Source of the DNA: an uncultured Muribaculaceae bacterium | GTDB lineage: Bacteria; Bacillota_I; Bacilli_A; RF39; UBA660 | DNA: 42,914 nucleotides | Assembly: GCA_964518415.1 (NCBI GenBank) | Contig: CAZFGE010000001.1 | Coordinates: 1-42,914, forward strand | Reading direction: 5' to 3' | Shown: piece by piece, positions 27,718-42,914 of the stretch | Layout: every line of letters starts with the position of its first letter | Numbering within the stretch: the first letter of the stretch is position 1 | Made by a program: the position numbers and the translations under genes | Notes under the pieces: generated by a model | Told to the model about the DNA's origin: nothing | Seen by the model: only the letters and a program-made list of their open reading frames with translations | The model's database searches: none

Positions 27718-30528
27718 TTGAGGAAAAAAATTAGTTTATTATTATTTATAATTCCTTTATTGGTTATTCCTTTTGTGAAGGTTGGAGCTGATAATAAATC
27801 GGGATATAAATATATAACTTCGGTTGAACGTACAAATTATAGAATTGATGTTTCCCAATATGGAATAAATAATGCAGCATTGCATAGAGGTAATTTTTAT
27901 AAAATAGAACTTGATGGAATGGTTGCTTTATGTTTAAAAGCTAACCATCCTATAATTCAAGGACATAAGTATGTATTTGACCATAAAATAAATACCAGTT
28001 CATTTGGTGGTAAGCTTTTAGTTAAGGCATTTGTATATGCATCTTCTAATAAATGTTCAAGTAATGAATGTACAATTGCCCGTGCTGCTGCTCAAATAGT
28101 TGCATGGAAGTATGACTGGGGATTTACATCATATCAACTAGTATCTGATTCGGATTATATTACAGGATATGCAATTGATTATTCTGAACGTATTTTGGGA
28201 GACCCTGCCCTATATAAAGCACTTTCTGCAGGATTAAAAAATTTCCCACATAAAAGTAGAACTATTGATGAAGAAGCATATAAACAATTCGTAAATATAC
28301 TTAATACTGAAATACCTGAAGGTGTTGAATTTGGTGTTTGGAGAGATGCTGAAAACTCTAATAACCAAGATGTTATTTCTTATGCATTAACTGAAGAAAC
28401 AAAACCAGTTGTAAATGAAACTTGTAAGTCAAAAATTTACAATAGATTATCAAGTTGTTATGGTAGTTATGGTACATTTGGTTATGCTTACGAAACTACT
28501 GAGGGTAATTGTTTAGATGGATATGATAAGAAAAAAAATAATGTCTATTCACGATTAGGTAAAAAAGAGGTAGATGTTGGCTCATATTGTAGAATGTATT
28601 GTAATAAACGTTTTTATGAAACATTACCAGGCAATATTGGAACTGCTGTCAATGTTGGAAGATATATTGTATGGCCAAATAATAATATTAATAATAATAG
28701 ATATAAAGTAAATGCTAATTTAGCTGAATATCCAATGGCACTTGCAATTGAAAAAGAATGTTATTTATCAGTTGATGCAAAAGTACTTGGAACTGATTAT
28801 ACAACAACTCTTAATAGTTATAATAATTATATAAATAGTATCAGAGGAATTTATAATACTTATGTTAAAGATAGTCGTACGTGCAAAACATATCAAAATA
28901 CTTATAACGAAAAAAAGAAAGAAGCTGATGATTATTGCAAAAATGTTGGTCCTGAGTATAAACCAAAAGAAACATGTGGAGAACCTTATTGGCATTGTAC
29001 TGAGTCTAATCCTAAAACAAAAGAATGCATACATGGCTCAACTTTTGCAGACTGTGAAGAAACTCAAGGACATAAAGATTGGGCAGCAAAAAATGAACAT
29101 TGTAATACTCTTCGAGGATATGAAAATGATGCTAAATCAACATTAGATAAATGTAATAATATACAAAACTATGTTGATGCTGTTGCAAATATTGTAAATG
29201 ATTTTAATAGTTGTATTAATTATAAAGCATCATTTAATATGAATTTTACTGCTCCTGGAGCTAGTGCATCATATAATGATGATGAATATGGTATGACAAT
29301 GATGTTAAAAGAGTCTAAAAAAGTTATAACATGTGATGGTTGTACATCTGGTATTGGTGGTATTAGTGTTAATAAAAATAATGTTGAGAAGAATTTAATA
29401 AGTAACAAAACAATACCAAATAAAATAACTGCAATAAATAATAGACAAATAATTGGAACAACACTTAAGTATTATGATTTAACTGATGGACATTATTATT
29501 TTGTTAATAAAGATACTAATAAATCAGTTAATTCAAATAGTGGACTTAAAAATTATTCTATAATTGGATTTACAAATATGCCTATTTCTTATAGTGCAAA
29601 TCCTAAAAAGAATTATGATTTGAGTATAACTATTCCAACTCTTACTGGTATGGCTAGTGATTTTGCTTCACTTGCAGCATCTAATAATTATGTATGTCAT
29701 TATAAGGTTACTAAAACAACACCTGGCACATGTGTATGTCCAGAAGGTACAAAACATGCAGGTGAGTCATTAGACTGTTTATCAAAAAATAATGATGGAA
29801 CATGTCTTGATAATCAAGAAGAATACTGTAATAGTGATGTTAATATACCACATGATTGTACTAATACCGATTTAACTTGTCCAAATGATCCAACTATGGA
29901 TTTATCAAGTTGTGTTAATGCCGGTAAGACATATAATTGGTGCGTAAATAATTTCTGTAGTGGTAATAAAAAATGGGTTTGTCCAGCTGGTACTAATGAA
30001 GGTATGGACTTAACAAGTTGTGTTATACCAATGATTATTAAAGGTTATAGTGAAAAAGATGCATATGAATATTGCAAAGATGTAACATGCCCTTACAAAG
30101 GAATAAAGATTATATATCGTGTTATCGATTTAACAAATCCATTCCCAAGTAAGGATGCAGATAGTATTGTTACTCAAAGAGATTTAAGAACTGGTATGTT
30201 TAATGATACTTTAAAAGGTAGATATCCTGGTTCTAACTGGAATAGTACTAAGGTTGTTAAGAGTAGAATCTTAAATAACAGAAATGTAGATGGTGATAAA
30301 GTATATGACAAAAAGCCATTATACGAGTTTACGCTTAATACTGAACGTATAAAAGCAATTAGAAATTATAATAGAAGTCAAAAAGATAGCTATGCTGATT
30401 TTAAACTTGATTGTTTAAGTGATAACTCAGCATGTATTAGTAGTTTTGTTCATAGTGAATTATCAGGATTAACTGGTGGAACATGTAGAAATATTACAAA
30501 GAATAGTTTCTATTCATGTCAAAATTAA
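27718..30528 (+). CDS. Large secreted Cys-rich protein (936 aa, unknown function; adhesin or tip-protein candidate)
   Basis: TTG start 6 nt after AGGAGGTG. Signal peptide. More than 40 Cys, including a thrice-repeated CPxGTxxGxDLxSC-like motif (CPEGTKHAGESLDC, CPNDPTMDLSSC, CPAGTNEGMDLTSC). Confidence 0.55.
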   Translation: MRKKISLLLFIIPLLVIPFVKVGADNKSGYKYITSVERTNYRIDVSQYGINNAALHRGNFYKIELDGMVALCLKANHPIIQGHKYVFDHKINTSSFGGKLLVKAFVYASSNKCSSNECTIARAAAQIVAWKYDWGFTSYQLVSDSDYITGYAIDYSERILGDPALYKALSAGLKNFPHKSRTIDEEAYKQFVNILNTEIPEGVEFGVWRDAENSNNQDVISYALTEETKPVVNETCKSKIYNRLSSCYGSYGTFGYAYETTEGNCLDGYDKKKNNVYSRLGKKEVDVGSYCRMYCNKRFYETLPGNIGTAVNVGRYIVWPNNNINNNRYKVNANLAEYPMALAIEKECYLSVDAKVLGTDYTTTLNSYNNYINSIRGIYNTYVKDSRTCKTYQNTYNEKKKEADDYCKNVGPEYKPKETCGEPYWHCTESNPKTKECIHGSTFADCEETQGHKDWAAKNEHCNTLRGYENDAKSTLDKCNNIQNYVDAVANIVNDFNSCINYKASFNMNFTAPGASASYNDDEYGMTMMLKESKKVITCDGCTSGIGGISVNKNNVEKNLISNKTIPNKITAINNRQIIGTTLKYYDLTDGHYYFVNKDTNKSVNSNSGLKNYSIIGFTNMPISYSANPKKNYDLSITIPTLTGMASDFASLAASNNYVCHYKVTKTTPGTCVCPEGTKHAGESLDCLSKNNDGTCLDNQEEYCNSDVNIPHDCTNTDLTCPNDPTMDLSSCVNAGKTYNWCVNNFCSGNKKWVCPAGTNEGMDLTSCVIPMIIKGYSEKDAYEYCKDVTCPYKGIKIIYRVIDLTNPFPSKDADSIVTQRDLRTGMFNDTLKGRYPGSNWNSTKVVKSRILNNRNVDGDKVYDKKPLYEFTLNTERIKAIRNYNRSQKDSYADFKLDCLSDNSACISSFVHSELSGLTGGTCRNITKNSFYSCQN

Positions 30529-30537
30529 GGAGGTAGT

Positions 30538-30939
30538 ATGAAAGAGTCATTTTGGAGTGTATTAATAGTAATGCTTGGAGTATTATCTATTGCATTTATT
30601 TACTTTTTTCAAACTATAACATCAACTGATGAACAAAACTATACTATCTTAAAAGAAGTAACAGAAGCCGCTATGTGGGATTCTGTTGACTGGGCTGAAT
30701 ATAGAGCAACAGGAAACACAAGAATACATAGAGAAAAGTTTGTTGAAAACTTTCAAAGAAGATTTGCTGAAAGCGTTTCTTTAGGAAATGTTTATAATAT
30801 AAAAATTTACGATGTAAGTGAATATCCACCTAAAGTAAGCTTGAAGGTTTCATCGAAATTAAAATCAAATGTGACCGATGAAATGGTTGAGTTCGATATT
30901 GTAAATAAAATTGATGCAATATTAGAAACTCCATATTAA
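30538..30939 (+). CDS. Small N-terminally anchored protein (pseudopilin-like architecture, unknown family)
   Basis: 133 aa: MKES followed by a single TM helix and a globular domain of about 100 aa. RBS GGAGG. Confidence 0.4.
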   Translation: MKESFWSVLIVMLGVLSIAFIYFFQTITSTDEQNYTILKEVTEAAMWDSVDWAEYRATGNTRIHREKFVENFQRRFAESVSLGNVYNIKIYDVSEYPPKVSLKVSSKLKSNVTDEMVEFDIVNKIDAILETPY

Positions 30940-30959: not shown

Positions 30960-31814
30960 ATGAATAATTTCGTAATAGCAATTAGAAGATTTTTCCAAAA
31001 CAAAAATACAGTAACAGTTATAGGAGTAATTCTTATATTAGTTGTATTATTTGTTGGATACAAAATTCAAATCAACAAAGCAGTAGAACCAGTATCAGGT
31101 ATACCAGTTGCTACTCAAACAATTCAACCAAGAACATTGATTGAAAATGATATGGTATCAACTATTCAAGTTGCACCTATCGTATTATCTGATAATGTAA
31201 TCAGATCAAAAGCCGCAGTAGTTGGAAAATATACAGCTGTAAATACAGTAGTTCCAGAAGGAAGTATGTTTTATAAAAATACAGTTGTAACAAAAGATGA
31301 ACTTCCAGATGCTGCATTTGTAGATATCGAAAAAGGACAAATACCATATAACTTCCCAGTTACTATGGCATCAACTTATGGTAACTCAATTTATCCAGGA
31401 AATTACATTGATATTTATATGAAATCAATGAATGAAAATGGAGAGTTAATGGTTGGTAGATTAATCGAAAATGTTAAAGTATTAGCAGTTAAAGATTCTC
31501 AAGGAAAGAATGTATTTGAAAATTCTGAAGAAACAAGAGTTCCTGCATATATAATCTTTGGATTAGATTATGAATTAAATATTTTACTTAGAAAAGCAAG
31601 TTACATGGATGAATTCCAAGTAGAATTATTCCCAGTGCCACATGGTACACAAGTTAAAACTGGCGATGGTGAGACTATCGTAAGTAGTCAAACATTAAAA
31701 GATTTCATAAATGCTAATACAGTACCTAACGATGAAATAACTGCTCAACAAGAAACTGATGCAGCAAAAGAAACTGTAACAGATACTACTAAAAACACTA
31801 AAAAAGAAAGCTAG
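30960..31814 (+). CDS. CpaB/RcpC-like Flp pilus assembly protein
   Basis: N-terminal TM. SAF-like segment (IQPRTLIENDMV...VVGKYTAVNTVVPEGSMF). PGNYIDIY and ENVKVLAV segments typical of CpaB. Immediately upstream of the secretion ATPase. Confidence 0.55.
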   Translation: MNNFVIAIRRFFQNKNTVTVIGVILILVVLFVGYKIQINKAVEPVSGIPVATQTIQPRTLIENDMVSTIQVAPIVLSDNVIRSKAAVVGKYTAVNTVVPEGSMFYKNTVVTKDELPDAAFVDIEKGQIPYNFPVTMASTYGNSIYPGNYIDIYMKSMNENGELMVGRLIENVKVLAVKDSQGKNVFENSEETRVPAYIIFGLDYELNILLRKASYMDEFQVELFPVPHGTQVKTGDGETIVSSQTLKDFINANTVPNDEITAQQETDAAKETVTDTTKNTKKES

Positions 31815-31820
31815 GTCTAA

Positions 31821-32963
31821 ATGGAAGACAGTATGTTTTCCCAAATTGATTTTGGGGATTTACAACAATACTTAGACAATGACGATATAACAGATATTTC
31901 ATATGATAATGGTGGACAAATTCACTTAAAAACATTATCAAGAGGTATTTTTAGGATAGAAAATCCTAACATAAATAATGCATTTATGGAAAAATTAGCG
32001 TTCCAATGCTCAAACGTAATGGGTAAGACATTTAATATGGCTCATCCATTCCTTGATGCAGAAGGTTCTGAACTTCGTTTAAACTTTGTTCATGAATCTA
32101 TTGCTAAAAATGGTATAGCTTGTGTTATTCGTAAAACACCAGCTAAAATCAGACTAGAAAAAGAAAAATTACTAAAAGAAAAATATATTGATTTAGATAT
32201 ACATGATTTTTTAATACAATGTGTACAAGGACATTGTAATATAATTGCTTGTGGTGAAACTGGTTCTGGTAAAACTGAGTTTATTAAATACTTAGCTTCT
32301 AAAACTAAACCAGATGAAAAGTTAATAACTATAGAGGATACTTTAGAGTTACACTTAGATAAAATATTCCCACATAGAGATATTGTTACAATGAAGACTA
32401 ATAACATAGCATCTTATTCAGATGTACTTGTTACTTGTATGAGACAGAATCCAAAGTGGATTTTGTTATCAGAGGTACGTAGTGCTGAGGCAGTAATGGC
32501 GGTAAGAAACTCTATTTCATCAGGTCACTATATCTTATCAACAATACATGCTGATAGAGCATCTTCTATACCTAACCGTATGTACAGTTTGCTTGAATCA
32601 AATCAAGATATGGATCAATATATGAAATCAGTTTATAGATATATACAAATTGGTGTATATATTAGAGGTTATCAAGATAAAGCTACTAAACGATTTGTTC
32701 GTGAGATAGCTGAAGTAACAGAATTTTATGTTACAGAAGATAACGAACCAAAATACAATGAAATTTATAAAAAGACAACAAGTGGTCATGTTGTTAGACA
32801 TAAACCTTCAAAATATTTAATTGACTATCTTGATAGACAAGGTGTTACATTAGATGAAAACCTTATTAAAGAAGGTGAAAGTGGAACACCACTTACTAAT
32901 AATGTAAGTAGTCAACCTAGTGTTGAACAAACTCAAGAAGTCATTGAAACAATTGGTGAATAA
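31821..32963 (+). CDS. Type II/IV secretion ATPase, CpaF/TadA/VirB11 family
   Basis: Walker A GETGSGKT (32253-32276), Asp box ITIEDTLEL, Walker B-like KWILLSEVR, His box STIHAD, 380 aa. Confidence 0.8.
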   Translation: MEDSMFSQIDFGDLQQYLDNDDITDISYDNGGQIHLKTLSRGIFRIENPNINNAFMEKLAFQCSNVMGKTFNMAHPFLDAEGSELRLNFVHESIAKNGIACVIRKTPAKIRLEKEKLLKEKYIDLDIHDFLIQCVQGHCNIIACGETGSGKTEFIKYLASKTKPDEKLITIEDTLELHLDKIFPHRDIVTMKTNNIASYSDVLVTCMRQNPKWILLSEVRSAEAVMAVRNSISSGHYILSTIHADRASSIPNRMYSLLESNQDMDQYMKSVYRYIQIGVYIRGYQDKATKRFVREIAEVTEFYVTEDNEPKYNEIYKKTTSGHVVRHKPSKYLIDYLDRQGVTLDENLIKEGESGTPLTNNVSSQPSVEQTQEVIETIGE

Positions 32964-32975
32964 GGAGGATAAAAT

Positions 32976-33884
32976 ATGATTTCAGTAATTACATTTTTAA
33001 TCATAGCTTTTATACTTGTCTTTGTAATGGCCTATAGATATAATTCAGGAGATAATTTTTATAAATATATATCAAAACAATCTAACTTTTTATATGATAA
33101 GTTTGCTCCTTATTCATTTAAAGAAATTAGAAAAAAAGTTAAGGATTTAGGACAAGAATATACTAAGAAACAATACATGATTCAAATATCTGTATTCTCT
33201 ATAGCAGCTGCTATTATATCTTACCTATATTTTTATAACTTATTAATTTCATTAATTTATATTATTGCAGCAAACGCTGTAATTCCAGTACTTACATATT
33301 ATAGATGTAAACGTATTTATTCAGAATTCATTTTTGAACAAATACAAGTTTATACGACAAATGTTATTATGGAATTCGCAACTACTCAATCATTTGTTAA
33401 AGCACTTGAAGGTGTATATGATTCAGGTGTCTTAGAAGATCCTGTTAAAAGTGATGTTAAAACAATGATTGATATGTCATATGAAAATGGTACAATTGAT
33501 GCTGCTGTTGAATTTATGAATGAAAAATATGATTATTATATTGTAAGAAATATGCATCAATTATTCATTCAAATTACAAATGAAGGTTCTAAAAACTCAA
33601 GTGATGCATTAGAAAACATGTCACTTGATATCGATATGCTTGTTGAAAATGTATATCGTGATAGAATGGACAGAGCTCAATTCCATAAGAAATTTTTACA
33701 ATTTGGTATAGTTTTATATTTAATGGTAATGTTAGTACAATTCTTACTTGGAACAGAATCTTATATTAAATTACTTGATACTAATTTCTTAGTTCAAGTA
33801 CTATTACATTTAATAATTATAATTAACTCTTATTTCTTACTTAACGGTGAGAAATACTATAATGAGAATGTGGGGGCTGAATAA
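32976..33884 (+). CDS. TadB-like platform protein (T2SS-F domain family)
   Basis: 302 aa with TadB-like topology: N-terminal TM, a TM pair near aa 65-110, a cytoplasmic helical domain of about 120 aa, and two C-terminal TMs. Follows the ATPase. Confidence 0.5.
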   Translation: MISVITFLIIAFILVFVMAYRYNSGDNFYKYISKQSNFLYDKFAPYSFKEIRKKVKDLGQEYTKKQYMIQISVFSIAAAIISYLYFYNLLISLIYIIAANAVIPVLTYYRCKRIYSEFIFEQIQVYTTNVIMEFATTQSFVKALEGVYDSGVLEDPVKSDVKTMIDMSYENGTIDAAVEFMNEKYDYYIVRNMHQLFIQITNEGSKNSSDALENMSLDIDMLVENVYRDRMDRAQFHKKFLQFGIVLYLMVMLVQFLLGTESYIKLLDTNFLVQVLLHLIIIINSYFLLNGEKYYNENVGAE

Positions 33885-34669
33885 TGGAATTTTTAATTAT
33901 TGGCGTTATATTATTTTTCATTCTTACATATAGTAATAGAGTAAATTTAAGAAAATTTGTTGGAGATACAGAACCATACTTTAGAGCTTTAATGGAAGAT
34001 GATTATGAATTCTTACTTAAAGTTAAATATGGAAATGATATAGATGTAAATGAACTATTTGGACAAAGAGTTAGAAATGGTTTAGTTACAATTGTAGTAT
34101 TAATATTTATATTTGTAATGAATAAACCAAGCTTTATAAGTGTATTACTTGCATTTATATTGGGTTATTTGGTATTTAAAAGCCAATATTCATCTTTACA
34201 AAAATATTATAAAAATAACTTACATCATATAGATCAAATGCTTCCATATTATCTAAAGAGTTTGGAAATCTTAATTCAACACTATACTGTACCGGTTGCA
34301 CTTAGAAGAAGTATTTCAACTGCTCCTGATATATTTGTTCCAGGATTACAAAGATTAGTTGATAGAATTGAACAAGGTGATTCTTCAGTTGATCCATATA
34401 TGGATTTTGCTAAAGAATATCCGGTAAGAGATTCAATGCGTATGATGCGTTTGCTATATCGTTTAGGTTTAGGTTCACAAGAAAATAAACAAGAACAATT
34501 AGTAATGTTCTCACGTACTGTATCAACACTTCAAAATAAAGCTCGTGAACAAAAATATAAAGAACGTTTAGAGAAGATGGAAAACAAAACTATGCAAATG
34601 TTATTTGCAACAGGTGGAGGTATATTATTACTACTTCTATTCTCAATGTTACAAATGATGAATTTATAA
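33884..34669 (+). CDS. TadC-like platform protein (T2SS-F domain family)
   Basis: 261 aa with the same topology class as the preceding gene. Its start overlaps the previous stop (ATAATG). Confidence 0.5.
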   Translation: MEFLIIGVILFFILTYSNRVNLRKFVGDTEPYFRALMEDDYEFLLKVKYGNDIDVNELFGQRVRNGLVTIVVLIFIFVMNKPSFISVLLAFILGYLVFKSQYSSLQKYYKNNLHHIDQMLPYYLKSLEILIQHYTVPVALRRSISTAPDIFVPGLQRLVDRIEQGDSSVDPYMDFAKEYPVRDSMRMMRLLYRLGLGSQENKQEQLVMFSRTVSTLQNKAREQKYKERLEKMENKTMQMLFATGGGILLLLLFSMLQMMNL

Positions 34670-34670
34670 A

Positions 34671-34698
34671 TTAGAACATATAATGTTCTAATTTTTTT
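34671..34698 (+). terminator. Rho-independent terminator after the TadC-like gene
   Basis: Stem ttagaacat (34671-34679) / atgttctaa (34683-34691), then T7. Confidence 0.7.
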
Positions 34699-34836: not shown

Positions 34837-34865
34837 TTGATAATTATTAAATATAGTGTTATACT
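34837..34865 (+). promoter_or_regulatory. Sigma-A-type promoter of the pilin-like gene set
   Basis: TTGATA (34837-34842), 17-nt spacer, TATACT (34860-34865). RBS GGGTGGTGA precedes ATG 34900. Confidence 0.55.
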
Positions 34866-34899: not shown

Positions 34900-35085
34900 A
34901 TGAAAGAAGCATCTGGAGAAGCAAATATGACTGTAGTTACAATCATTTTAATAGGTATTATAGTTGCTGTAGCAACACCATTAATTACTAATATGATGAA
35001 AACTTCAAAAGAAAGATCATGTTGTTATAATAATGGTGGTACTTGGGTTAATGGTGACTGTGACGGAGCATCTAAAGAGTGCTAA
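34900..35085 (+). CDS. Flp-type pilin candidate (61 aa)
   Basis: Leader MKEASG, then a 25-aa hydrophobic helix, then a short tail with 4 Cys (SCCYNNGGTWVNGDCDGASKEC). Shares leader and RBS with the next two genes. Confidence 0.5.
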   Translation: MKEASGEANMTVVTIILIGIIVAVATPLITNMMKTSKERSCCYNNGGTWVNGDCDGASKEC

Positions 35086-35099
35086 TAATTGGTGATTAA

Positions 35100-35525
35100 A
35101 TGAAAGAAGCAATTGGTCATATACCATTATACAATTTTTTAATTGTATTTATTGTTATTACATTTGGCTTTTTATCTGCAACGCTTACTTACTATAAAGC
35201 TTTTAAAGTTAATAGTAAAATAGCTTATGCTTTAGAAGAGTTTGAGGGCTATAATAGTGAGTCTATTAAAGAGATAAATAGAGTATTAGGTACACTTGGA
35301 TATAGAAACGGAAGAGTTTCTAAATGTCCAAATAAGAAAATTGGACAAGCACTTAATGTTAAAGGAATTAATCATCAAGTGTGTATTTATGAATCAAAAC
35401 CTAAAAATGGATACTTTAATTATGGTATAGTAACCTATATTTATATGGATGTTCCTGTACTTGGAGGAACATTCAAAATACCTGTATATACAGAATCTGA
35501 AAGGATATTTAAATTTTCAAGTTAG
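35100..35525 (+). CDS. TadE/pseudopilin-like protein
   Basis: Leader MKEAIG followed by a hydrophobic helix. Globular domain with a Cys pair. Paralog of 35538-35981. Confidence 0.45.
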   Translation: MKEAIGHIPLYNFLIVFIVITFGFLSATLTYYKAFKVNSKIAYALEEFEGYNSESIKEINRVLGTLGYRNGRVSKCPNKKIGQALNVKGINHQVCIYESKPKNGYFNYGIVTYIYMDVPVLGGTFKIPVYTESERIFKFSS

Positions 35526-35537
35526 AGTGGTGATAAA

Positions 35538-35981
35538 GTGAGAGAGGCAATTGGTAATAGTTATGTGCTTAATTTTATCATCACTTTTATTATCCTTTTT
35601 ATGCTTATATTTGTTGGTATGTCAACATTTACAAAAGCATTTAAAGTAAAAAATAAAATTGTTGATACAATTGAAAATTATGATGGTAAGGTTGATAATA
35701 GTAATCGCTTAAATAGTGATATTCAAGCAGAAATAAATGAAAAGTTAGGTAGTATAGGTTATAAGATAGATAAAACTAGTGAATGTAAAACAGATGGTAG
35801 ATTTTCAAATGGAAAATTACTTTCCAAAGATAGTAACTATAGATATTGTGTTTACAAATTTACTACGTCAAAAGGTGACTATTATGGAGTTACTGCATAT
35901 GCATACTTAGAAATACCTTTAATAGGCGCTAAATTAGAATTCCCAGTATATGGTGAGACAAAAATATTCTATGATTTATAG
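35538..35981 (+). CDS. TadE/pseudopilin-like protein
   Basis: GTG start. Leader (M)REAIG followed by a hydrophobic helix. Collinear with the previous protein (LG.[IL]GY...C...C[IV]Y...Y[IL].[DI]P..G....[IF]PVY.E[ST]). Confidence 0.45.
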   Translation: MREAIGNSYVLNFIITFIILFMLIFVGMSTFTKAFKVKNKIVDTIENYDGKVDNSNRLNSDIQAEINEKLGSIGYKIDKTSECKTDGRFSNGKLLSKDSNYRYCVYKFTTSKGDYYGVTAYAYLEIPLIGAKLEFPVYGETKIFYDL

Positions 35982-37082: not shown

Positions 37083-37430
37083 ATGATTAATGCTTTAGTT
37101 TACTGTGGTGGAGTTGATATTCCAGACGTTATTCCTAACATGGTACATTTATTAATTTTAGGTATCCAAATCTTTATTCCAATCGTTTTAATCGTACTTG
37201 GTATGTTAGATATGGGTAAAGCTGTTATGAGTAATGATGAAAAAGTAATGAAAGAAAACCAAAATAAATTAATTAAAAGAATTATTTATGCAGTATTAGT
37301 TTTCTTAGTTGTTGCTATTGTTCGTACAGTAGTAGGCATGGTTACTAGTGTTGGTGGAGAAGATACTTTAGTTGATGACGGATCTATCAAAAACTGTATT
37401 CATGTATTTGTATCTGGAACAGGTAAATAA
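37083..37430 (+). CDS. VirB2/TrbC-like (pilin-like) small membrane protein
   Basis: 115 aa. Two hydrophobic helices flank a charged loop (IPIVLIVLGMLDMGKAVMSNDEK...LIKRIIYAVLVFLV). Strong RBS AGGAGG, its own terminator, and a position upstream of VirB6/B3/B4-like genes. Confidence 0.45.
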   Translation: MINALVYCGGVDIPDVIPNMVHLLILGIQIFIPIVLIVLGMLDMGKAVMSNDEKVMKENQNKLIKRIIYAVLVFLVVAIVRTVVGMVTSVGGEDTLVDDGSIKNCIHVFVSGTGK

Positions 37431-37450
37431 TTAATTATTAATATTTAAAA

Positions 37451-37485
37451 AACAATAATAATTATATTTATTATTGTTTTTTTTT
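37451..37485 (+). terminator. Rho-independent terminator after the VirB2-like gene
   Basis: Stem aacaataataa (37451-37461) / ttattattgtt (37468-37478), 6-nt loop, T-run 37479-37485. Confidence 0.75.
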
Positions 37486-37486
37486 A

Positions 37487-37495
37487 TGCTATAAT
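37487..37495 (+). promoter_or_regulatory. Extended -10 element immediately after the terminator
   Basis: TGcTATAAT at 37487-37495, 32 nt upstream of ATG 37527. Confidence 0.4.
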
Positions 37496-37526
37496 ATATG
37501 TGTGATAATGTAGATGGAGTGAGACT

Positions 37527-38504
37527 ATGAAAAAAACACTAAAATATATATTAATTACATCTATAATGATGTTTATTGGAATGAATAATGGATTGGCAGC
37601 TGATGTAGCTCATATGTGTAGATATTATCAATCAAACAATAAAGAATTGTTGGTTCTTACATATACAGAAGGCAATGCAGCTGATTCAACTTCTCAATTA
37701 AAAGATGTTCGTATTAACAAGGATAATAAATATACCGGTGAAAAGTGTCCTGAATTTTTAATGTTACAAACAAATGGTGTAAATACGATGTATGCATCAA
37801 CTAGTAAAGATAAATTAGAAAATCTTGCAAGTAAGTATAAGATTTCTAAAAATGATTATGAGATAATGAGTTTATATAGTATTGATGGTGTTGATGTATC
37901 TGTAAAAAAAATAGGCGATAAAGGTGGAAGCTTTGTACAAGTGTGTAAATATAATGATTTTACATTTTATGTGGATCATAACAGTAAACATGCTTGGGTC
38001 GAAAGTAAAAACTGTTATGGATATGCAGCAGAGTATAAGGCAAAATATGATTGGTTTTCAGATGGCTGTCCTGTAAATATATATAATGGATACACAGGAG
38101 GAAGTGAATGTATGTTTTCACTTTCATCAAGCTTTTGGACTACTTCTGAAAAGCAAATTCTATTAGAAGATAGTTATAAAAAACATAGTCCATCTGGTGA
38201 TTCAAATAATGATATCAATCTTTGTGATGATATATCTAATACAACTTCTCTTATAAAAAGTGCTTATAAAACTTTAAAATATTTAATTCCTGTTTTGATA
38301 ATAGTATTAAGTATTGTAGATTTTATAAAAGTTGTTGCAAATGGTGAAGACAAAGAATATAAAAATGCATGGAATAAATTTATTAAAAGAATTATTATTG
38401 GAATTGTTATTATATTAGTTCCAGTAATAATTGAAATGTTAATTGGACTTACAGGCTTATTTAATAATGGTGAGATTAACGAAATATTTTGTATTTTTAA
38501 ATAG
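37527..38504 (+). CDS. Secreted Cys-rich domain fused to a C-terminal VirB2-like two-helix module
   Basis: Signal peptide ...GLAADVA. An ectodomain of about 200 aa with about 8 Cys. The C-terminus LIPVLIIVLSIVDFIKVVANGEDKEYKNAWNKFIKRIIIGIVIILV aligns with the whole 115-aa protein. Confidence 0.5.
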   Translation: MKKTLKYILITSIMMFIGMNNGLAADVAHMCRYYQSNNKELLVLTYTEGNAADSTSQLKDVRINKDNKYTGEKCPEFLMLQTNGVNTMYASTSKDKLENLASKYKISKNDYEIMSLYSIDGVDVSVKKIGDKGGSFVQVCKYNDFTFYVDHNSKHAWVESKNCYGYAAEYKAKYDWFSDGCPVNIYNGYTGGSECMFSLSSSFWTTSEKQILLEDSYKKHSPSGDSNNDINLCDDISNTTSLIKSAYKTLKYLIPVLIIVLSIVDFIKVVANGEDKEYKNAWNKFIKRIIIGIVIILVPVIIEMLIGLTGLFNNGEINEIFCIFK

Positions 38505-38522
38505 AAAGGGGAGAATAAATAT

Positions 38523-40508
38523 ATGAAAACAAGCGTTGGTATTAATTTAGCTCGTTCTATATTTTCGGTTATTGATAAAGCAATATATTCACTTATTGCA
38601 GCTATATATAATATAATTGAAGAATTAGCTTCTAATGTATCTGTTTTTAATGAATCAACAATTGATGATTTTGCTAAAAGAATATATGTTTTTATCGGAA
38701 TTGTAATGGTTTTTAAAGTAACATTCTCTCTTATAAATTATTTGGTTAATCCAGATTCAATGAATGATAAAAATTCTGGAGTTGGAAATGTTGCTAAAAA
38801 TATTGTGATTACATTAGTACTATTAATAATTACTCCTTATGCATTTGACTTTTTATACAGAGCTCAAAATGCAATATTAAGTGATAATATTTTACCTCAA
38901 GTTATTCTTGGAACAAGTGATACTAAATCAGTTGGTCAAAAGTTTCAAATGGCTGAAGACTGTGAAGTCGTTGAGATAGATGATCCAGGACAATTTATGG
39001 CTCTAGTTGCACTTAGACCTTTTTATGGGGTTAATAAAGGTGCATCTATTGAGTCAATAAAGGATGAATATTGTAATGCTAATTATACTGCAAGTGATAT
39101 GTTAACAGAAAGTATTTATAATGCTGAGGATAATGACATGTATATTATTGATTATTCATTCTTTATGTCAACAGTGTCTGGTGTAATTGTACTTGTTTTA
39201 ATGTTAACAATAGGAATGGATATTGCACTTAGAATTATTAAACTAGGTTTCTTAGAAATAATTGCTCCAGTTCCTATAATTTCATACGTTGATCCTAAAT
39301 CTGGAAAAGATGGTATATTTAAAAAATGGTTAAAAGAAGTTATTAGAACATGGATAAGTTTATTCTTAAAACTTGCTGTATTATATTTTGCAATTTATAT
39401 AATAAAAGTTTTAGATGATGCTCTTGTTAATGTAAGTAATCATAATTATGATATGTGGATTTCATTATTCCTACTTATTGGAGCATTAATGTTCGCTAAA
39501 CAATTTACTAAATTAATTGAAGATATATTTGGAGTAAAATTAGATGGTATGGGCTTACATCCAATTAAGAAAATACAAGAACAAGCAATGTTTGGAAAAC
39601 AATTAACAAGTGCACCTGGTAAAATTGGAGCTGCTGCTATAGGTGGAACAGTTGCTGCAGCAGGTTTTGCAATTGGTAGAGGTTTAAAAATAAAAGATAT
39701 AAGACAAAATCAAAGACAATTTAATGATGAAACTAGAAGACTACAACAACTTAGAGGTAAAATGCTTGATACAAGATCAGTTATTAGCAATTTAACACAT
39801 TCAGGTGCTTCAGAGGAAACTATTCAAGGCTATAAAAATATTCTAAATAATCAAAAAAATGAATTTGCAGAATTAAACAAAACAAGACATGAAACTGCTG
39901 CTAATTTAGCTAAGGCTAAAGAAAAATATGAAAAATCAACTACTGATGAGGATGGAAATAAATATTTCAGTGCTTCTTTCCCTGGGTTAGCAGGAACAAT
40001 GCAAACTTTACGTGGAGTTAAGGAGGGTTTTTCAGCAAAAGATATTAAAGGCTTAAGCGGTGTAATAACTGCTGGAATTAACGCAGCTAAGGTAGCTACT
40101 AAACGTACAAATGATTTTGATAAATTTGGATATTTAGATAGACTAAAAGATTTAGGTACAGATATAACTGGTGTTAAAAATGAATCTGGTACTACAAGTA
40201 TTGTAAAAGAACATTTAAAACAACAAAAAGAAAGCTTAAGAGATATTGAAAGTGCTTTACGTGCTCAAGAAGTAAGATTTGGTAATCTTCCTGCTGGAAT
40301 GATTAAAATGGAGTCTGATGATAAAGGTAAACATAAATATGTAGTTGCTTCAAGTAATTCTGATGTTTGGAATAATAACCCTACAATTAGTAGAGACTCT
40401 ATTGTTTCTGAAGTAGAAAATTGGGAATCAATGCGTGAAGCTCAACGTAAGATTGAAAAATCTAACAAAGAATATGAAGATGTACTTGCAATAAATAAAG
40501 CAAAATAG
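38523..40508 (+). CDS. VirB6/TrbL-like polytopic membrane protein with a long C-terminal coiled-coil region
   Basis: 661 aa: about 6-7 TM helices in the first 340 aa, then a Gly/Ala-rich segment and a charged helical tail. Positioned between the VirB2-like and VirB3/VirB4-like genes. Confidence 0.45.
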   Translation: MKTSVGINLARSIFSVIDKAIYSLIAAIYNIIEELASNVSVFNESTIDDFAKRIYVFIGIVMVFKVTFSLINYLVNPDSMNDKNSGVGNVAKNIVITLVLLIITPYAFDFLYRAQNAILSDNILPQVILGTSDTKSVGQKFQMAEDCEVVEIDDPGQFMALVALRPFYGVNKGASIESIKDEYCNANYTASDMLTESIYNAEDNDMYIIDYSFFMSTVSGVIVLVLMLTIGMDIALRIIKLGFLEIIAPVPIISYVDPKSGKDGIFKKWLKEVIRTWISLFLKLAVLYFAIYIIKVLDDALVNVSNHNYDMWISLFLLIGALMFAKQFTKLIEDIFGVKLDGMGLHPIKKIQEQAMFGKQLTSAPGKIGAAAIGGTVAAAGFAIGRGLKIKDIRQNQRQFNDETRRLQQLRGKMLDTRSVISNLTHSGASEETIQGYKNILNNQKNEFAELNKTRHETAANLAKAKEKYEKSTTDEDGNKYFSASFPGLAGTMQTLRGVKEGFSAKDIKGLSGVITAGINAAKVATKRTNDFDKFGYLDRLKDLGTDITGVKNESGTTSIVKEHLKQQKESLRDIESALRAQEVRFGNLPAGMIKMESDDKGKHKYVVASSNSDVWNNNPTISRDSIVSEVENWESMREAQRKIEKSNKEYEDVLAINKAK

Positions 40509-40528
40509 AATAAAAAGAGGGTGAAAAT

Positions 40529-40855
40529 ATGAATAATAATATGTATTTGATACCGGCTAATAGTAAAAAATCAATGATGATATTTGGAATGTTTTATCCT
40601 TTTGATTTAATCCTATTTGGAACAGGATTATCAATATCTCTTCTTTTATTGATGATTCTTCCACTTGATAGCTTAGTAGTTAGTCTACTAGCTATCTCAC
40701 CAGGATTAATCACGGGACTTCTAGTATTCCCTTTACCAAATTATCACAATACTTTAACAGTATTAATTGATATATTTGATTTCTTTACTACTAGACAAAG
40801 ATATGTATGGAAAGGTTGGTGTGTGATGGATGAGCTCAAAAAAGATAAAGAGTAA
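40529..40855 (+). CDS. PrgI-family (VirB3-like) small membrane protein
   Basis: 108 aa with two TM helices. N-terminal IPANSKKSMMIFGMF...DL pattern. Immediately upstream of, and overlapping, the VirB4-like ORFs. Confidence 0.5.
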   Translation: MNNNMYLIPANSKKSMMIFGMFYPFDLILFGTGLSISLLLLMILPLDSLVVSLLAISPGLITGLLVFPLPNYHNTLTVLIDIFDFFTTRQRYVWKGWCVMDELKKDKE

Positions 40856-41381
40856 ATATACAAATGATGAGTTCGTTCCAGTAAAAAGTATTACAAATGG
40901 AATGATTATCTTAGATAATAATGACAAAGTAAGTGGAATTAAAATTATGCCAAGAAATATATTTATAGCTGATCAAGATACTCAAAATGCTATAATTGCT
41001 AATTTAAGAAATGTTTATAACATGATAGATTACGAATTTTGGATTATAGCAGCTGATAGACCAGTTGATATAAATGTATTCTTATCTCAATTACAACTTT
41101 TATATAATTCAGTGCAAGATCAAGCTAGAAAGAAACTAATTATGGAAGATATTAATAAAGCAAATATGTTTATGGATAATAATATTGTTGATACAGAATA
41201 TTTCTTATTATTTAAAGAAAGAAACAATGATGTAGTAATGAAAAGAATTAGAAATTTAATTAATTCATTTGCTAGCGCAGGTTTAAATTCACATCAAGTT
41301 ACAAATGATGATTTAAGAATCATCTTAGATAACTTCTTAAATGGTGGACAAACTACTACATTTGGTACGGTGATTGGCTAA
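40830..41381 (+). CDS. VirB4-like ATPase, detached N-terminal segment
   Basis: 183 aa. Resembles the first ~180 aa of Firmicute VirB4/PrgJ/CD1110-type ATPases (VPVKSITNGMIILDNNDKVSGIKIMP.N..). Joined to the next ORF by a TAATG overlap. Confidence 0.45.
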   Translation: MSSKKIKSKYTNDEFVPVKSITNGMIILDNNDKVSGIKIMPRNIFIADQDTQNAIIANLRNVYNMIDYEFWIIAADRPVDINVFLSQLQLLYNSVQDQARKKLIMEDINKANMFMDNNIVDTEYFLLFKERNNDVVMKRIRNLINSFASAGLNSHQVTNDDLRIILDNFLNGGQTTTFGTVIG

Positions 41382-42700
41382 TGGATATTAAATCACAAAT
41401 AGCTCCTAAGGGACTTGAATTTAAAGCTTCTCACTTTGTAATAAGTGATAAATATGCATGTATATTAACAGCAATAACTTATCCAAGATATATAGCTCCA
41501 GGATACTTATCTAGTTTAACTAGTATGTCTGGAATTAAAGTTGTAATTAAACATATTCCACTACCTTTTAGTGCAATTTCTAAAATGCTTAATAAAGAGA
41601 TAGCTGATTTAAAACAACGTTATCAAGAAGAACATGATAGAACTGCACAAGAACGTATTAGACAAAATTATGAATCACTAGAACAATTCATATCACAACT
41701 TGCTGCATCACAATCTAAAATATATGATTTTCAAATGCATATCATGATAACTGCTAATACAGAAGAAGAATTAAATCAAAAGAAATTCCAAGTTAAAAAC
41801 TATTTGGATGCTATGGAAATAAGAGCAATTCCACTTAGATTTGAACAAGAAAAAGTATTAAAATCTATTTTACCAATTTATGGTAAACAAGATATAGAAG
41901 ATAGAATAGGTACACCAATTCCTGCACCTACAATTGCAGCTATGTATCCATTTATATTTGATAGTATAAAAGATCCAGGATTATCTACACTTCTTGGTGT
42001 TGATTTCTCTGGTGGTGTTATTCTATTTAATCAATTCTTATATCAAATCAAAAAAGAACATAATAGAAATAATGCTAACTTAATTATTCTAGGTACATCT
42101 GGTAGTGGTAAATCTACTGCAGCTAAGATTTTACTTAGAACTCATATTAGAAATAATTGTCAACTTGTTCTAATTGATCCAGAAGGTGAGTTAGAAGAAA
42201 TGACAAATAGATACGGTGGAGATTTCATCGACCTTGGTAAAGGTGGAGAATTCGGTATGGTTAACCCATTAGAGGTTATAATAGATGCTGATGAAGATGA
42301 AATTGCTAATGGTTTAGGTTACACTGTATTAACACGTACTTTACAAAGCGTTAAAGCATTTATGAAATATTATGATCCTTCAATTGAAGAAGATGTTCTT
42401 AATATGTTTAGTGAAGTACTACAAGAAACATATAGAAGATTTGGTATTGACTTTAACACTGACTTTACAAAATTTACATCTAAAGATTATCCAACTTTCA
42501 AGGATGTTTATGCAACTATAAGAGGTCGTTTAACATCTATGACTGAGAAAACTCAAGAGAGAGATGTAATGGAGAGACTTGAATTAAAAGTTAGACCAAT
42601 TGTTAAAGAATTAAAATATTACTTTGATGGACATACAACAATATCTACATCAAGTAACTTTATAACAAAAAAAAAAAGAGAAATAATCAATTCTGAATAA
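41381..42700 (+). CDS. VirB4-like conjugation/T4SS ATPase, truncated after the Walker A region (likely non-functional)
   Basis: IAPKGLEF....ISDKYACILTAITYPRYIAPGYL entry motif, Walker A GTSGSGKST (42092-42118), LIDPEGE motif. The ORF stops at aa 439, before any Walker B (DEAW-type) or C-terminal domain. Confidence 0.65.
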   Translation: MDIKSQIAPKGLEFKASHFVISDKYACILTAITYPRYIAPGYLSSLTSMSGIKVVIKHIPLPFSAISKMLNKEIADLKQRYQEEHDRTAQERIRQNYESLEQFISQLAASQSKIYDFQMHIMITANTEEELNQKKFQVKNYLDAMEIRAIPLRFEQEKVLKSILPIYGKQDIEDRIGTPIPAPTIAAMYPFIFDSIKDPGLSTLLGVDFSGGVILFNQFLYQIKKEHNRNNANLIILGTSGSGKSTAAKILLRTHIRNNCQLVLIDPEGELEEMTNRYGGDFIDLGKGGEFGMVNPLEVIIDADEDEIANGLGYTVLTRTLQSVKAFMKYYDPSIEEDVLNMFSEVLQETYRRFGIDFNTDFTKFTSKDYPTFKDVYATIRGRLTSMTEKTQERDVMERLELKVRPIVKELKYYFDGHTTISTSSNFITKKKREIINSE

Positions 42701-42914
42701 AATAAGAATTCTGAATAAATAAACTATTTGTACTGTAAATCACACCACCATCACTTAAAGCATAATTTGATTTGAAAGTAGAATTGTCAATGTTTTGTTT
42801 GAAGTTGGAATAAATTACCCCACCATATGTTGCAGAATTATTTTCAAATATACAATTTTTCATTGAACCTTCAGCATTAAAATAAATTACTCCACCATGT
42901 TTTGCAGTATTATT
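42687..42914 (-). CDS. C-terminal end of a beta-helix (GGxIY / Pmp-like) repeat protein; the gene continues beyond the window
   Basis: My own reverse-strand translation is open from the window edge: NNTAKHGGVIYFNAEGSMKNCIFENNSATYGGVIYSNFKQNIDNSTFKSNYALSDGGVIYSTNSLFIQNSYFIQN*. The stop is at 42687-42689. Not in the ORF track because no start codon lies in the window. Confidence 0.6.
   Translation of the reverse strand, partial: NNTAKHGGVIYFNAEGSMKNCIFENNSATYGGVIYSNFKQNIDNSTFKSNYALSDGGVIYSTNSLFIQNSYFIQN

Follow-up and report, generated by a model that had tools for sequence, protein, structure and literature searches.

Can three small, consecutive genes that match no known pilin family and have no prepilin peptidase beside them encode the subunits of a type IV filament? 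This question is raised by p61, p141 and p147 (named after the lengths of their products in amino acids, aa) on contig CAZFGE010000001.1 of an uncultured gut/rumen bacterium. The window, i.e. the whole stretch of DNA analysed, comprises 42,914 nt and is the entire contig 1 of a 983-kb, 65%-complete assembly. The three open reading frames (ORFs) start with MKEASG (p61), MKEAIG (p141) and (V->M)REAIG (p147), a GGTGA motif is located 4-5 nt upstream of each start codon and each leader is followed by ~20-25 hydrophobic residues with a mean Kyte-Doolittle value of 1.9-2.3 over 20 aa. A sequence-only reading had likened these ORFs to class III prepilins cleaved by a TadV-type peptidase; the shared leaders, ribosome-binding sites and hydrophobic helices it described are all real. 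According to our analysis, the trio fairly probably represents one major (p61) and two minor subunits (p141/p147) of a very diverged Tad-type filament inside a type IV secretion system (T4SS) cluster, with MKEAxG as a minimal class III signal.

Leader conservation and the A24 peptidase

Of the 803 crude proteins examined from this genome, only p141 and p147 carry the motif M[KR][EQD][AGS]xG; p61, which has it too, falls under the size cut-off. The start MK is present in 30% and MKE in 1.9% of these proteins. An explanation of the MKE start as an artefact of A+T-rich composition was rejected, since the full motif is confined to the trio and the start is therefore no by-product of A+T-rich coding.

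Leader residues were counted in 26-28 close orthologues per family (p61 n = 26, p141 n = 27, p147 n = 28). Position 6 is occupied by Gly in 23 of the p61 sequences (88%; S 2, E 1), in 25 of the p141 sequences (93%; S 2) and in 17 of the p147 sequences (61%; A 6, N 3, S 2). Outside these close orthologues, p147 has Gly in almost every distant genus. Gly6 is invariant among 32 aligned p141/p147 homologues, and in p61 the residues M1, K2, E7, A8, N9, T11 and V12 do not vary. Starts of the forms MK[EA]A[ST]GE[LT]... and M[RK][ED][AS]xG... are kept in 20 more distant genera and in another family. Conservation among homologues had been set as a test of the prepilin proposal, and the Gly-ended leader is conserved, apart from the Gly6 exchanges just listed, in numerous genera belonging to three or more families of Bacilli with small genomes.

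The remainder of p61 behaves differently from its start. The tail is hypervariable, with total lengths of 47-90 aa and 4, 2 or no Cys, and two tandem p61 genes are present in several distant genera, many of which have a single p141-type gene instead of two. With an invariant N-terminus, a hypervariable C-terminus and tandem duplications, p61 appears to evolve like a pilin. The 4-Cys tail that had been singled out is real in this protein but is not a family feature: a 2-Cys core is all that close relatives keep, and Cys is missing altogether in several distant genera. Because the Cys number varies among relatives, the 4-Cys tail is considered a local, lineage-specific trait. A partial tandem duplication was observed in relative L019 (2814-3225), in which a p61-like fragment and the first 59 aa of a p141 orthologue are located just upstream of the intact p61 and p141 genes.

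The genome was searched for an A24/TadV-type peptidase. The assembly contains one A24 enzyme, on contig 11 beside a 604-aa PilC, and a GGGD motif was read in this sequence; the statement that no prepilin peptidase lies near the trio thus holds. The domains A24_N_bact and Peptidase_A24 identify the enzyme as PilD-type, not TadV-type. In 26/26 genomes (own genome plus 25 relatives), exactly one A24 peptidase above the Pfam cut-off was detected, with an intact frame and never within the cluster. In monoderm Tad loci it is nothing unusual for the peptidase to be encoded elsewhere (e.g., tadV of Bifidobacterium breve), and processing of Tad-type pilins in trans is already known. From the proposed resemblance to class III prepilins with TadV-type cleavage, the Gly-ended leader and the presence of an A24 peptidase are retained, but the enzyme is of another type and membership in the Flp or TadE families was not found. 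A hidden peptidase in the cluster was considered and rejected, the candidates being a 520-aa polytopic and a 217-aa protein; both are without GxGD and without a Pfam match, and inspection by eye revealed no conserved Asp inside their hydrophobic stretches.

The genome also encodes a canonical pilin set, consisting of PilB and proteins starting with MKNNKG/FTLIE, MKNKG/FMLIE and MKKSSG/FMLFE (the slash marks the cleavage position). The six-residue leader of the trio equals these canonical leaders in length and shape, whereas the part after Gly differs, with no Phe at +1 and no Glu at +5. In mutagenesis of the Pseudomonas pilin, Gly at -1 was reportedly the chief requirement for cleavage, while +1 and +5 are said to matter to methylation and assembly but not to cleavage.

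Some further observations concern the canonical system. The pilD gene (264 aa) is paired with pilC among the housekeeping genes of RpoD and DnaG (contig 11, L048 5542-8131), far from PilB and the pilins on contig 9. The 604-aa PilC has two T2SSF domains behind a ~250-aa Lys/Glu-rich N-terminal extension. About 40 ORFs are headed by MKKG/FTLIELL, many of them 300-980 aa long (contigs C4, C13, C19, C22, C24, C28, C32 and C42 among others). These ~40 prepilin-headed surface proteins are a very large family for a genome of ~1-1.5 Mb with a single PilD.

Minor subunits, motor and proposed mechanism

p141 and p147 share 34% identity and were aligned by hhalign with a probability of 100%. C76 and C95 are invariant among 120 sequences of the family from close relatives, and both the paralogy and the conserved Cys pair noticed in the sequence-only reading are confirmed. 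The metagenome protein set contains 126 unnamed homologues of p141, some of which lie on contigs of 130-470 kb. An AlphaFold model based on a 120-sequence alignment has a predicted local distance difference test (pLDDT) value of 88.6; helix 2-47 continues, with no linker in between, into a domain of one short helix and one three-stranded sheet. Thus modelled, p141 would have the gross 'lollipop' layout of pilins and pseudopilins. A VirB8-like reading of p141 was dropped, as VirB8/NTF2-like entries appeared in Foldseek at a probability of 0.04-0.05 only. Sequence-profile searches of the PDB using alignments of the p141 family, p336 (the next gene downstream) and the TadB-like and TadC-like proteins of the cluster gave no meaningful match.

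The profile of 83 p141/p147-family sequences was compared with four DUF4320 proteins (three above the Pfam cut-off and one just below) using hhalign, resulting in a probability of 91.6% and an E-value of 8e-7. When the gene-40 proteins of pLS20-type plasmids were included alongside DUF4320, values of 94.6% and 7e-8 were obtained. The aligned stretch covers 66 N-terminal columns and contains the leader, the membrane helix, a helix with an E-x-x-E/G-G-Y/F motif and the next helix. Judged from these alignments, p141 and p147 are distantly related to DUF4320. Like p141 and p147, the DUF4320 proteins of Firmicute Tad loci have a Gly-ended leader with a hydrophobic helix, a helix ending in E-x-x-G-G/E-G-Y and a length of 120-150 aa, and their genes are placed after a TadC-like gene, as is the trio. 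In contrast to p141 and p147, clostridial members have basic leaders of 8-18 residues and G/FSEL with Glu at +3. The residue before the hydrophobic helix was determined for 27 sampled DUF4320-family proteins and is Gly in 25 and Ala in one, with none in the remaining one. Leader lengths in this family range from 8-18 basic residues in Clostridia (G/FSEL) down to six (MGNKIG/F, MKGTIG/T; no Glu). A chromosomal Tad locus of another Bacilli genome comprises two Flp-like genes, its own Peptidase_A24 (1.3e-11), RcpC, a ParA-like gene, a T2SSE ATPase, two polytopic proteins and a DUF4320 protein starting with MRKILRNNNG/FSELV. In the literature searched, no paper was found on DUF4320 and none describing subunits like p61, p141 or p147.

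With Flp pilins, p61 shares its very small size, the one hydrophobic helix, the short variable tail and the position beside Tad motor genes. The Flp motif G/xxxxEY is absent, as had been noted: p61 reads G6/EANMTVV, with T at +5 and V at +6 invariant in the 26 orthologues. For p141 and p147, no Glu was found among the six residues after Gly6, no motif of the G/xxxxEF type is present and no TadE match was obtained at E ≤ 1.

The pilin-like genes adjoin those of a T2SSE ATPase and of a platform protein whose fold is GspF-like, although the T2SSF profile itself gave no match; such an arrangement is expected of the superfamily of type IV filaments (TFF). The platform was recognized from an AlphaFold model of the TadC-like protein with medium confidence (pLDDT 70.8). 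In Foldseek against the PDB, 7/9 top matches were cytoplasmic domains of SpoIIIAB (6bs9), EpsF (2vmb, 2vma, 3c1q) and OutF (5nbg), with probabilities of 0.89-1.0 and TM-scores to the target of 0.57-0.69 at weak E-values of 0.17-1.4. The model supports a GspF/PilC/TadC-type platform that is missed by Pfam T2SSF. Comparison of the TadB-like and TadC-like proteins with PilC of the same genome using hhalign was not significant with these shallow alignments. The ATPase has its best NCBIfam matches in VirB11, conjugal TadA, TrbB and FlaI, each below the cut-off. The p336 gene always follows the pilin-like genes directly and is 63-91% identical across relatives. No Pfam match and no PDB sequence match were obtained for p336; its C-terminal half aligns with ParA/TadZ-like genes of plasmid and chromosomal Tad loci (hhalign 58%, E 1e-4).

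Two side observations concern the platform families. In Firmicute Tad-like loci, TadB/TadC-type platforms are missed by Pfam T2SSF (window 32976-34669; L083 8115-9890), even beside a clear A24 peptidase, RcpC and T2SSE, and this profile is therefore a blind spot in automated Tad detection. In the metagenome protein set, the TadB-like family is represented by at least 8000 clusters (90% identity), none with a Pfam domain; one cluster is named 'amino acid transporter' by the source, probably wrongly.

From these data we infer leader cleavage, the enzyme responsible, polymerisation and a contribution to T4SS function as follows. The six-residue signal M-K/R-E-A-x-G would hold each subunit N-in in the membrane and would be cut after Gly6, probably by the only A24 enzyme of the cell, a PilD-type peptidase which would also serve the MKKG/FTLIE prepilins. 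The subunits would then be pulled from the membrane and polymerised via their N-terminal helices. The upstream CpaF/VirB11-type ATPase, the two polytopic platforms and the CpaB-like protein are the putative motor, and p336 is probably its organiser. p61 would be the Flp-sized major subunit, and p141/p147 an old duplicated minor-pilin pair derived from DUF4320. The structure would be a type IVc-like member of the TFF superfamily and would most likely serve the adjoining T4SS, either in cell contact or as a wall-spanning pseudopilus.

Counter-evidence and alternative explanations

Several results weigh against this proposal. Gly6 is exchanged for A, N or S in 11/28 p147 and for S or E in 3/26 p61 orthologues, and A24 enzymes should be unable to cleave behind Asn, Ser or Glu at -1. 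The leader is net-neutral (K2, E3), and several Lys follow the helix (KAFKVK). Phe or Met at +1 and Glu at +5 or +3 are lacking in all three proteins, and the predicted mature N-termini start with E, H/S or N. No Pfam or NCBIfam model matched p61, p141 or p147 at E ≤ 1, and none of them belongs to Flp, TadE or N_methyl. When p61 was compared with Flp-like prepilins of plasmid and chromosomal Tad loci, hhalign gave a non-significant 19%; this alignment places the start of p61 at the cleavage region of the relatives, which is a hint only. The DUF4320 profile (PF14208) matched neither p141 nor p147 at E ≤ 1 and had no match in a six-frame search of the own genome. The profile-profile match is limited to the 66 N-terminal columns and its scores are inflated, because about a third of these columns is membrane helix, and the profile comparisons are based on small hand-made alignments. 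Foldseek with the p141 model against the PDB returned no pilin or other match at E < 0.3, and the platform assignment involves weak E-values and a model of medium confidence. Finally, the N-termini of the pLS20-type gene-41 proteins (MEQNSG, MEPNTD, MLDQNTD) have no positive charge and no conserved Gly.

The first alternative concerns the function only. With the same processing, the trio could be genuine pilin-like subunits of a short, non-adhesive pseudopilus or piston that spans the wall for the T4SS, as in type II secretion or Com. This is a somewhat unlikely function, for which several features of the cluster speak: the pilin genes come first in the T4SS operon, the cluster encodes wall hydrolases and a VirD4 coupling protein of its own, VirB11 models give the ATPase its best scores, and a separate 936-aa Cys-rich surface protein could provide adhesion. 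The collinear pLS20-family genes likewise sit between an adhesin gene and the T4SS core (PMC8557374). Nevertheless, modules of motor genes plus DUF4320 without T4SS genes occur in another family and on plasmids, and the module can therefore work alone. The hypervariable p61 tail in turn suggests exposure at the outside.

The chief rival to a filament of any kind is a set of uncleaved, bitopic scaffold proteins of the T4SS/ATPase complex, in which MKEAxG would be a cytoplasmic tail bound by p336 or the ATPase. Such a scaffold would agree with the inconstant Gly6, the net-neutral leader with Lys after the helix, the lack of a structural match of p141 to pilins and the pLS20-type counterparts without a basic leader and without a conserved Gly. 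In addition, DUF5411, the fourth N-anchored protein of the cluster, starts with MKESFW without Gly, and the trio is always found with p336 and T4SS genes, also where a different contig carries the motor block. These points are opposed by the DUF4320 relatives, which have classical basic, Gly-ended leaders and occur beside an A24 peptidase within the locus, and by the p141 model, in which the helix appears to enter the globular domain without a linker, as in pilins. The conserved N-terminus, hypervariable C-terminus and tandem duplications of p61 are typical of exposed filament subunits. Moreover, the cluster contains a GspF-fold platform and a CpaF-type ATPase, and we know of no role for this pair other than moving pilin-like subunits. 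An uncleaved scaffold is accordingly regarded as unlikely.

Removal of the leader by a non-A24 enzyme, be it a general signal peptidase or a cluster protease that escaped recognition, is highly improbable. In its favour, none of the 26 genomes has a peptidase gene linked to the cluster and the predicted mature N-termini differ from all canonical PilD substrates of the genome, but the cluster proteins are without peptidase motifs, Gly at -1 with a six-residue leader is an A24 signature, and signal peptidase I wants the hydrophobic core before the cut, not after it. A processed, Tad-type filament with p61 as major subunit thus remains the explanation we favour.

The cluster, its distribution and known systems

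Housekeeping genes (pseudouridine synthase, D-Ala-D-Ala carboxypeptidase, ABC transporters) fill the window up to ~24.7 kb. Beyond this position two co-directional blocks follow, block A with the motor and block B with the pilin-like trio and the T4SS (Table 1). Block A contains, in this order, three unassigned secreted or membrane proteins, of which one is the 936-aa Cys-rich protein, DUF5411, the CpaB/RcpC-like protein, the T2SSE ATPase and the two polytopic proteins. In block B, p61, p141, p147 and p336 are followed by a VirB2-like protein (115 aa), a 325-aa protein with a T4SS_pilin C-terminus, a TrbL/VirB6-like protein, a VirB3-like protein and a split VirB4.

Table 1. Features of blocks A and B and of the junction between them (positions within the window)
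Feature	Position	Strand	Evidence
DUF5411 protein (133 aa), N-terminal anchor starting MKESFW, first motor-block gene	30538..30939	+	Pfam PF17424, E 1.8e-50
CpaB/RcpC-like protein (284 aa)	30960..31814	+	Pfam RcpC 5.7e-6, TIGR03177 CpaB 3.3e-9; both under curated cut-offs
CpaF/TadA/VirB11-type secretion ATPase (380 aa)	31821..32963	+	Pfam T2SSE 9.6e-25
TadB-like polytopic membrane protein (302 aa)	32976..33884	+	assigned from position only; no Pfam match
TadC-like platform protein (261 aa), putative GspF/T2SSF-type cytoplasmic helical bundle	33884..34669	+	AlphaFold and Foldseek
Terminator-like hairpin (12 bp, A+T-rich) with U-run, just 3' of the TadC-like gene	34668..34698	+	RNA fold
Promoter-like site TTGATA-17 nt-TATACT, extended -10 TG	34837..34865	+	consensus match 10/12 plus TG
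p61 (61 aa, ATG), candidate major pilin of Flp size, putative leader MKEASG	34900..35085	+	
p141 (141 aa, ATG), candidate minor pilin (pseudopilin), distant DUF4320 relative, putative leader MKEAIG	35100..35525	+	
p147 (147 aa, GTG start), p141 paralogue, putative leader (M)REAIG	35538..35981	+	
p336 (336 aa), candidate TadZ/ParA-like organiser, degenerate P-loop	35996..37006	+	
Gram-positive-type T4SS genes, same direction as the trio	37083..42700	+	Pfam T4SS_pilin, TrbL_4, P-loop_TraG/DUF87

The 936-aa Cys-rich secreted protein (27718-30528) precedes the motor genes and evolves fast, with 30-65% identity where the ATPase keeps 80-94%; it occupies the position of the thioester adhesin (Tie) in pLS20-type operons. 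As in the window (40830-42914), VirB4 is split in all relatives into a first ORF of 183 aa, which has a TraC-like Pfam match there, and a second ORF, which has 594 aa there. In the window, the second ORF ends at 439 aa, where a convergent repeat-rich ORF reaches the contig end; this stop is probably an assembly join or a local rearrangement.

Between the blocks, the sequence-only reading had placed a strong terminator (34671-34698) and a dedicated promoter. The hairpin with its U-run is real: it is a perfect 12 bp stem with a dG of -10.4 kcal/mol and a z of -3.8, matched by 0/200 shuffles. With fewer than 3 G-C pairs, this hairpin was not called by a consensus terminator scanner. The promoter-like site is the best of the region, but such sites are equally frequent in shuffled sequence. 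The hairpin junction is also the place of inserts and of splits between the blocks in relatives.

The same gene order was found in 26 species-level genomes of uncultured gut/rumen 'Bacilli'. The family profile was detected in 124/151 sampled genomes and 71/86 genera of the order, with genome sizes of 0.6-1.6 Mb. Variation is concentrated at the junction of blocks A and B: inserts of 1-5 kb occur there (e.g., a YfhO gene), and the blocks lie apart in several genomes. Block A was found elsewhere in 9/9 checked genomes lacking it beside block B; in 3/9 of these, the full 10 kb of upstream sequence was available, while in the others this stretch was truncated. In relatives, block B continues with the 594-aa VirB4, NlpC/P60, a glucosaminidase, a 239-aa protein and a VirD4-type coupling protein, after which housekeeping genes (RmuC, Lon) are reached (e.g., L070 11804-17813). 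No relaxase was seen within 10 kb of the cluster in this one relative (L070); the genomes were not searched for relaxases. An origin as a mobile element (integrative and conjugative element or plasmid) was rejected for this lineage on the basis of the number of genomes with the cluster, contigs of up to 470 kb and the housekeeping flanks. Since its presence is lineage-wide, the cluster is considered a vertically inherited core feature and not a recent mobile element.

In another family, a stand-alone motor module was observed (L071 6482-13263, L072 4963-11718), consisting of a DUF5411-like protein, CpaB, ATPase, two polytopic proteins, a weakly DUF4320-like protein of 118-134 aa and a secreted protein of 855 aa. 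T4SS genes, p61 and p336 are absent from it. The 118-aa protein of this module starts with MKG/VIQIY and has a weak DUF4320 score (E 0.0011).

Should the trio be working pilins, the sequence rules for TFF subunits would widen to a net-neutral six-residue leader without Glu5 or Phe1 that is processed by a PilD-type enzyme in trans, and DUF4320 as well as very abundant unnamed gut-metagenome proteins would obtain a function. A broader claim, which is doubtful as it stands, is that the trio, DUF5411, p336 and the CpaF/VirB11-type motor form an undescribed TFF branch built into monoderm T4SSs, with minimal or absent leaders and no conserved Glu. If this were true, these bacteria would have a vertically inherited chromosomal organelle that seizes partner cells and moves DNA or protein, and pLS20 genes 36-41 would imply that some Gram-positive conjugation systems do have a pilus. 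An organelle of filament plus T4SS, together with the ~40 prepilin-headed proteins, would point to a lifestyle of cell-cell contact in these uncultured Bacilli with genomes of ~1 Mb.

Among described systems, an operon with DUF5411, CpaF and PilC was predicted in gut Clostridia and flagged as uncharacterised and pilus- or secretion-like (Miller et al. 2022, PMC9523054); in the literature searched, DUF5411 was found in this prediction study only. Compared by description, this operon (Roseburia, Ruminococcus, Eubacterium) resembles the window in DUF5411, the CpaF-type ATPase, a PilC/GspF-like membrane protein and a large surface protein, whereas no T4SS link is reported and pilin-like subunits or a leader are not described (PMC9523054).

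The nearest described relatives are genes 36-41 of pLS20-family plasmids, which are collinear and lie in a Gram-positive T4SS operon next to a large adhesin gene. In the ATPase search, genes of the 'CpaF/VirB11 family' were found on 1940 plasmids, mostly of Bacillus, and the window ATPase shares 33% identity with the 'CpaF/VirB11 family protein' that a pLS20-family plasmid of B. velezensis encodes (phmmer 3.4e-47). After the thioester adhesin, the order on this plasmid is a 126-aa N-anchored protein, the ATPase, two polytopic proteins, a 119-aa N-anchored protein and single-helix proteins of 47 and 65 aa. Using phmmer, the best matches fell on the collinear pLS20-type ORF for the TadC-like protein (2.6e-5, gene 39), the TadB-like protein (0.005, gene 38), DUF5411 (0.021) and p61 (0.018), all weak values from a small database. 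The DUF5411 gene is collinear with gene 36 of pLS20-type plasmids and with the DUF5411 genes of plasmid Tad loci, and the 119-120-aa N-anchored protein of gene 40 groups with DUF4320 and p141. Unlike the window, pLS20 is plasmid-borne, has a relaxase and no CpaB-like gene, and its small genes stand in the order 40 then 41, not with the Flp-like one first. Genes 36 and 38-41 are listed as 'unknown' and gene 37 as 'putative VirB11' (Val-Calvo et al. 2021, PMC8557374), and Gram-positive conjugation is described as being without a pilus (PMC8557374, PMC11730352). Cell contact in Gram-positive conjugation is a long-standing gap; the same gene set is unannotated in pLS20-family operons, and pLS20 in Bacillus subtilis makes the pilus idea directly testable.

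Plasmid loci of Priestia, B. cytotoxicus and Exiguobacterium combine DUF5411, SAF/CpaB, a ParA-like ATPase, CpaF, 'type II secretion system F family', Flp-like and DUF4320 proteins. The Flp-like proteins of these loci have 84-88 aa and long leaders (...SEEG/TNTYG...).

A TFF system beside a conjugative T4SS is known from R64 (IncI1), whose thin type IVb pilus serves mating-pair formation in liquid. By description, R64 differs in that its pilus belongs to a diderm type IVb system and comes with canonical prepilins and a prepilin peptidase of its own, PilU. With the Tad/Flp systems of Aggregatibacter, Caulobacter and B. breve, the trio shares the order of a small major pilin followed by two larger pseudopilins, and the window shares the partners CpaB, TadA-type ATPase, TadB/TadC and TadZ-like protein as well as, for monoderms, a peptidase gene that may lie elsewhere. 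In contrast to Tad/Flp, the window has neither G/xxxxEY nor G/xxxxEF, a leader of six residues, a PilD-type enzyme and genes fused into a T4SS operon. While an off-locus peptidase gene is ordinary, the six-residue, Glu-less signal is unusual, as are the missing direct family match and the position of the genes at the head of a monoderm T4SS operon that is conserved order-wide.

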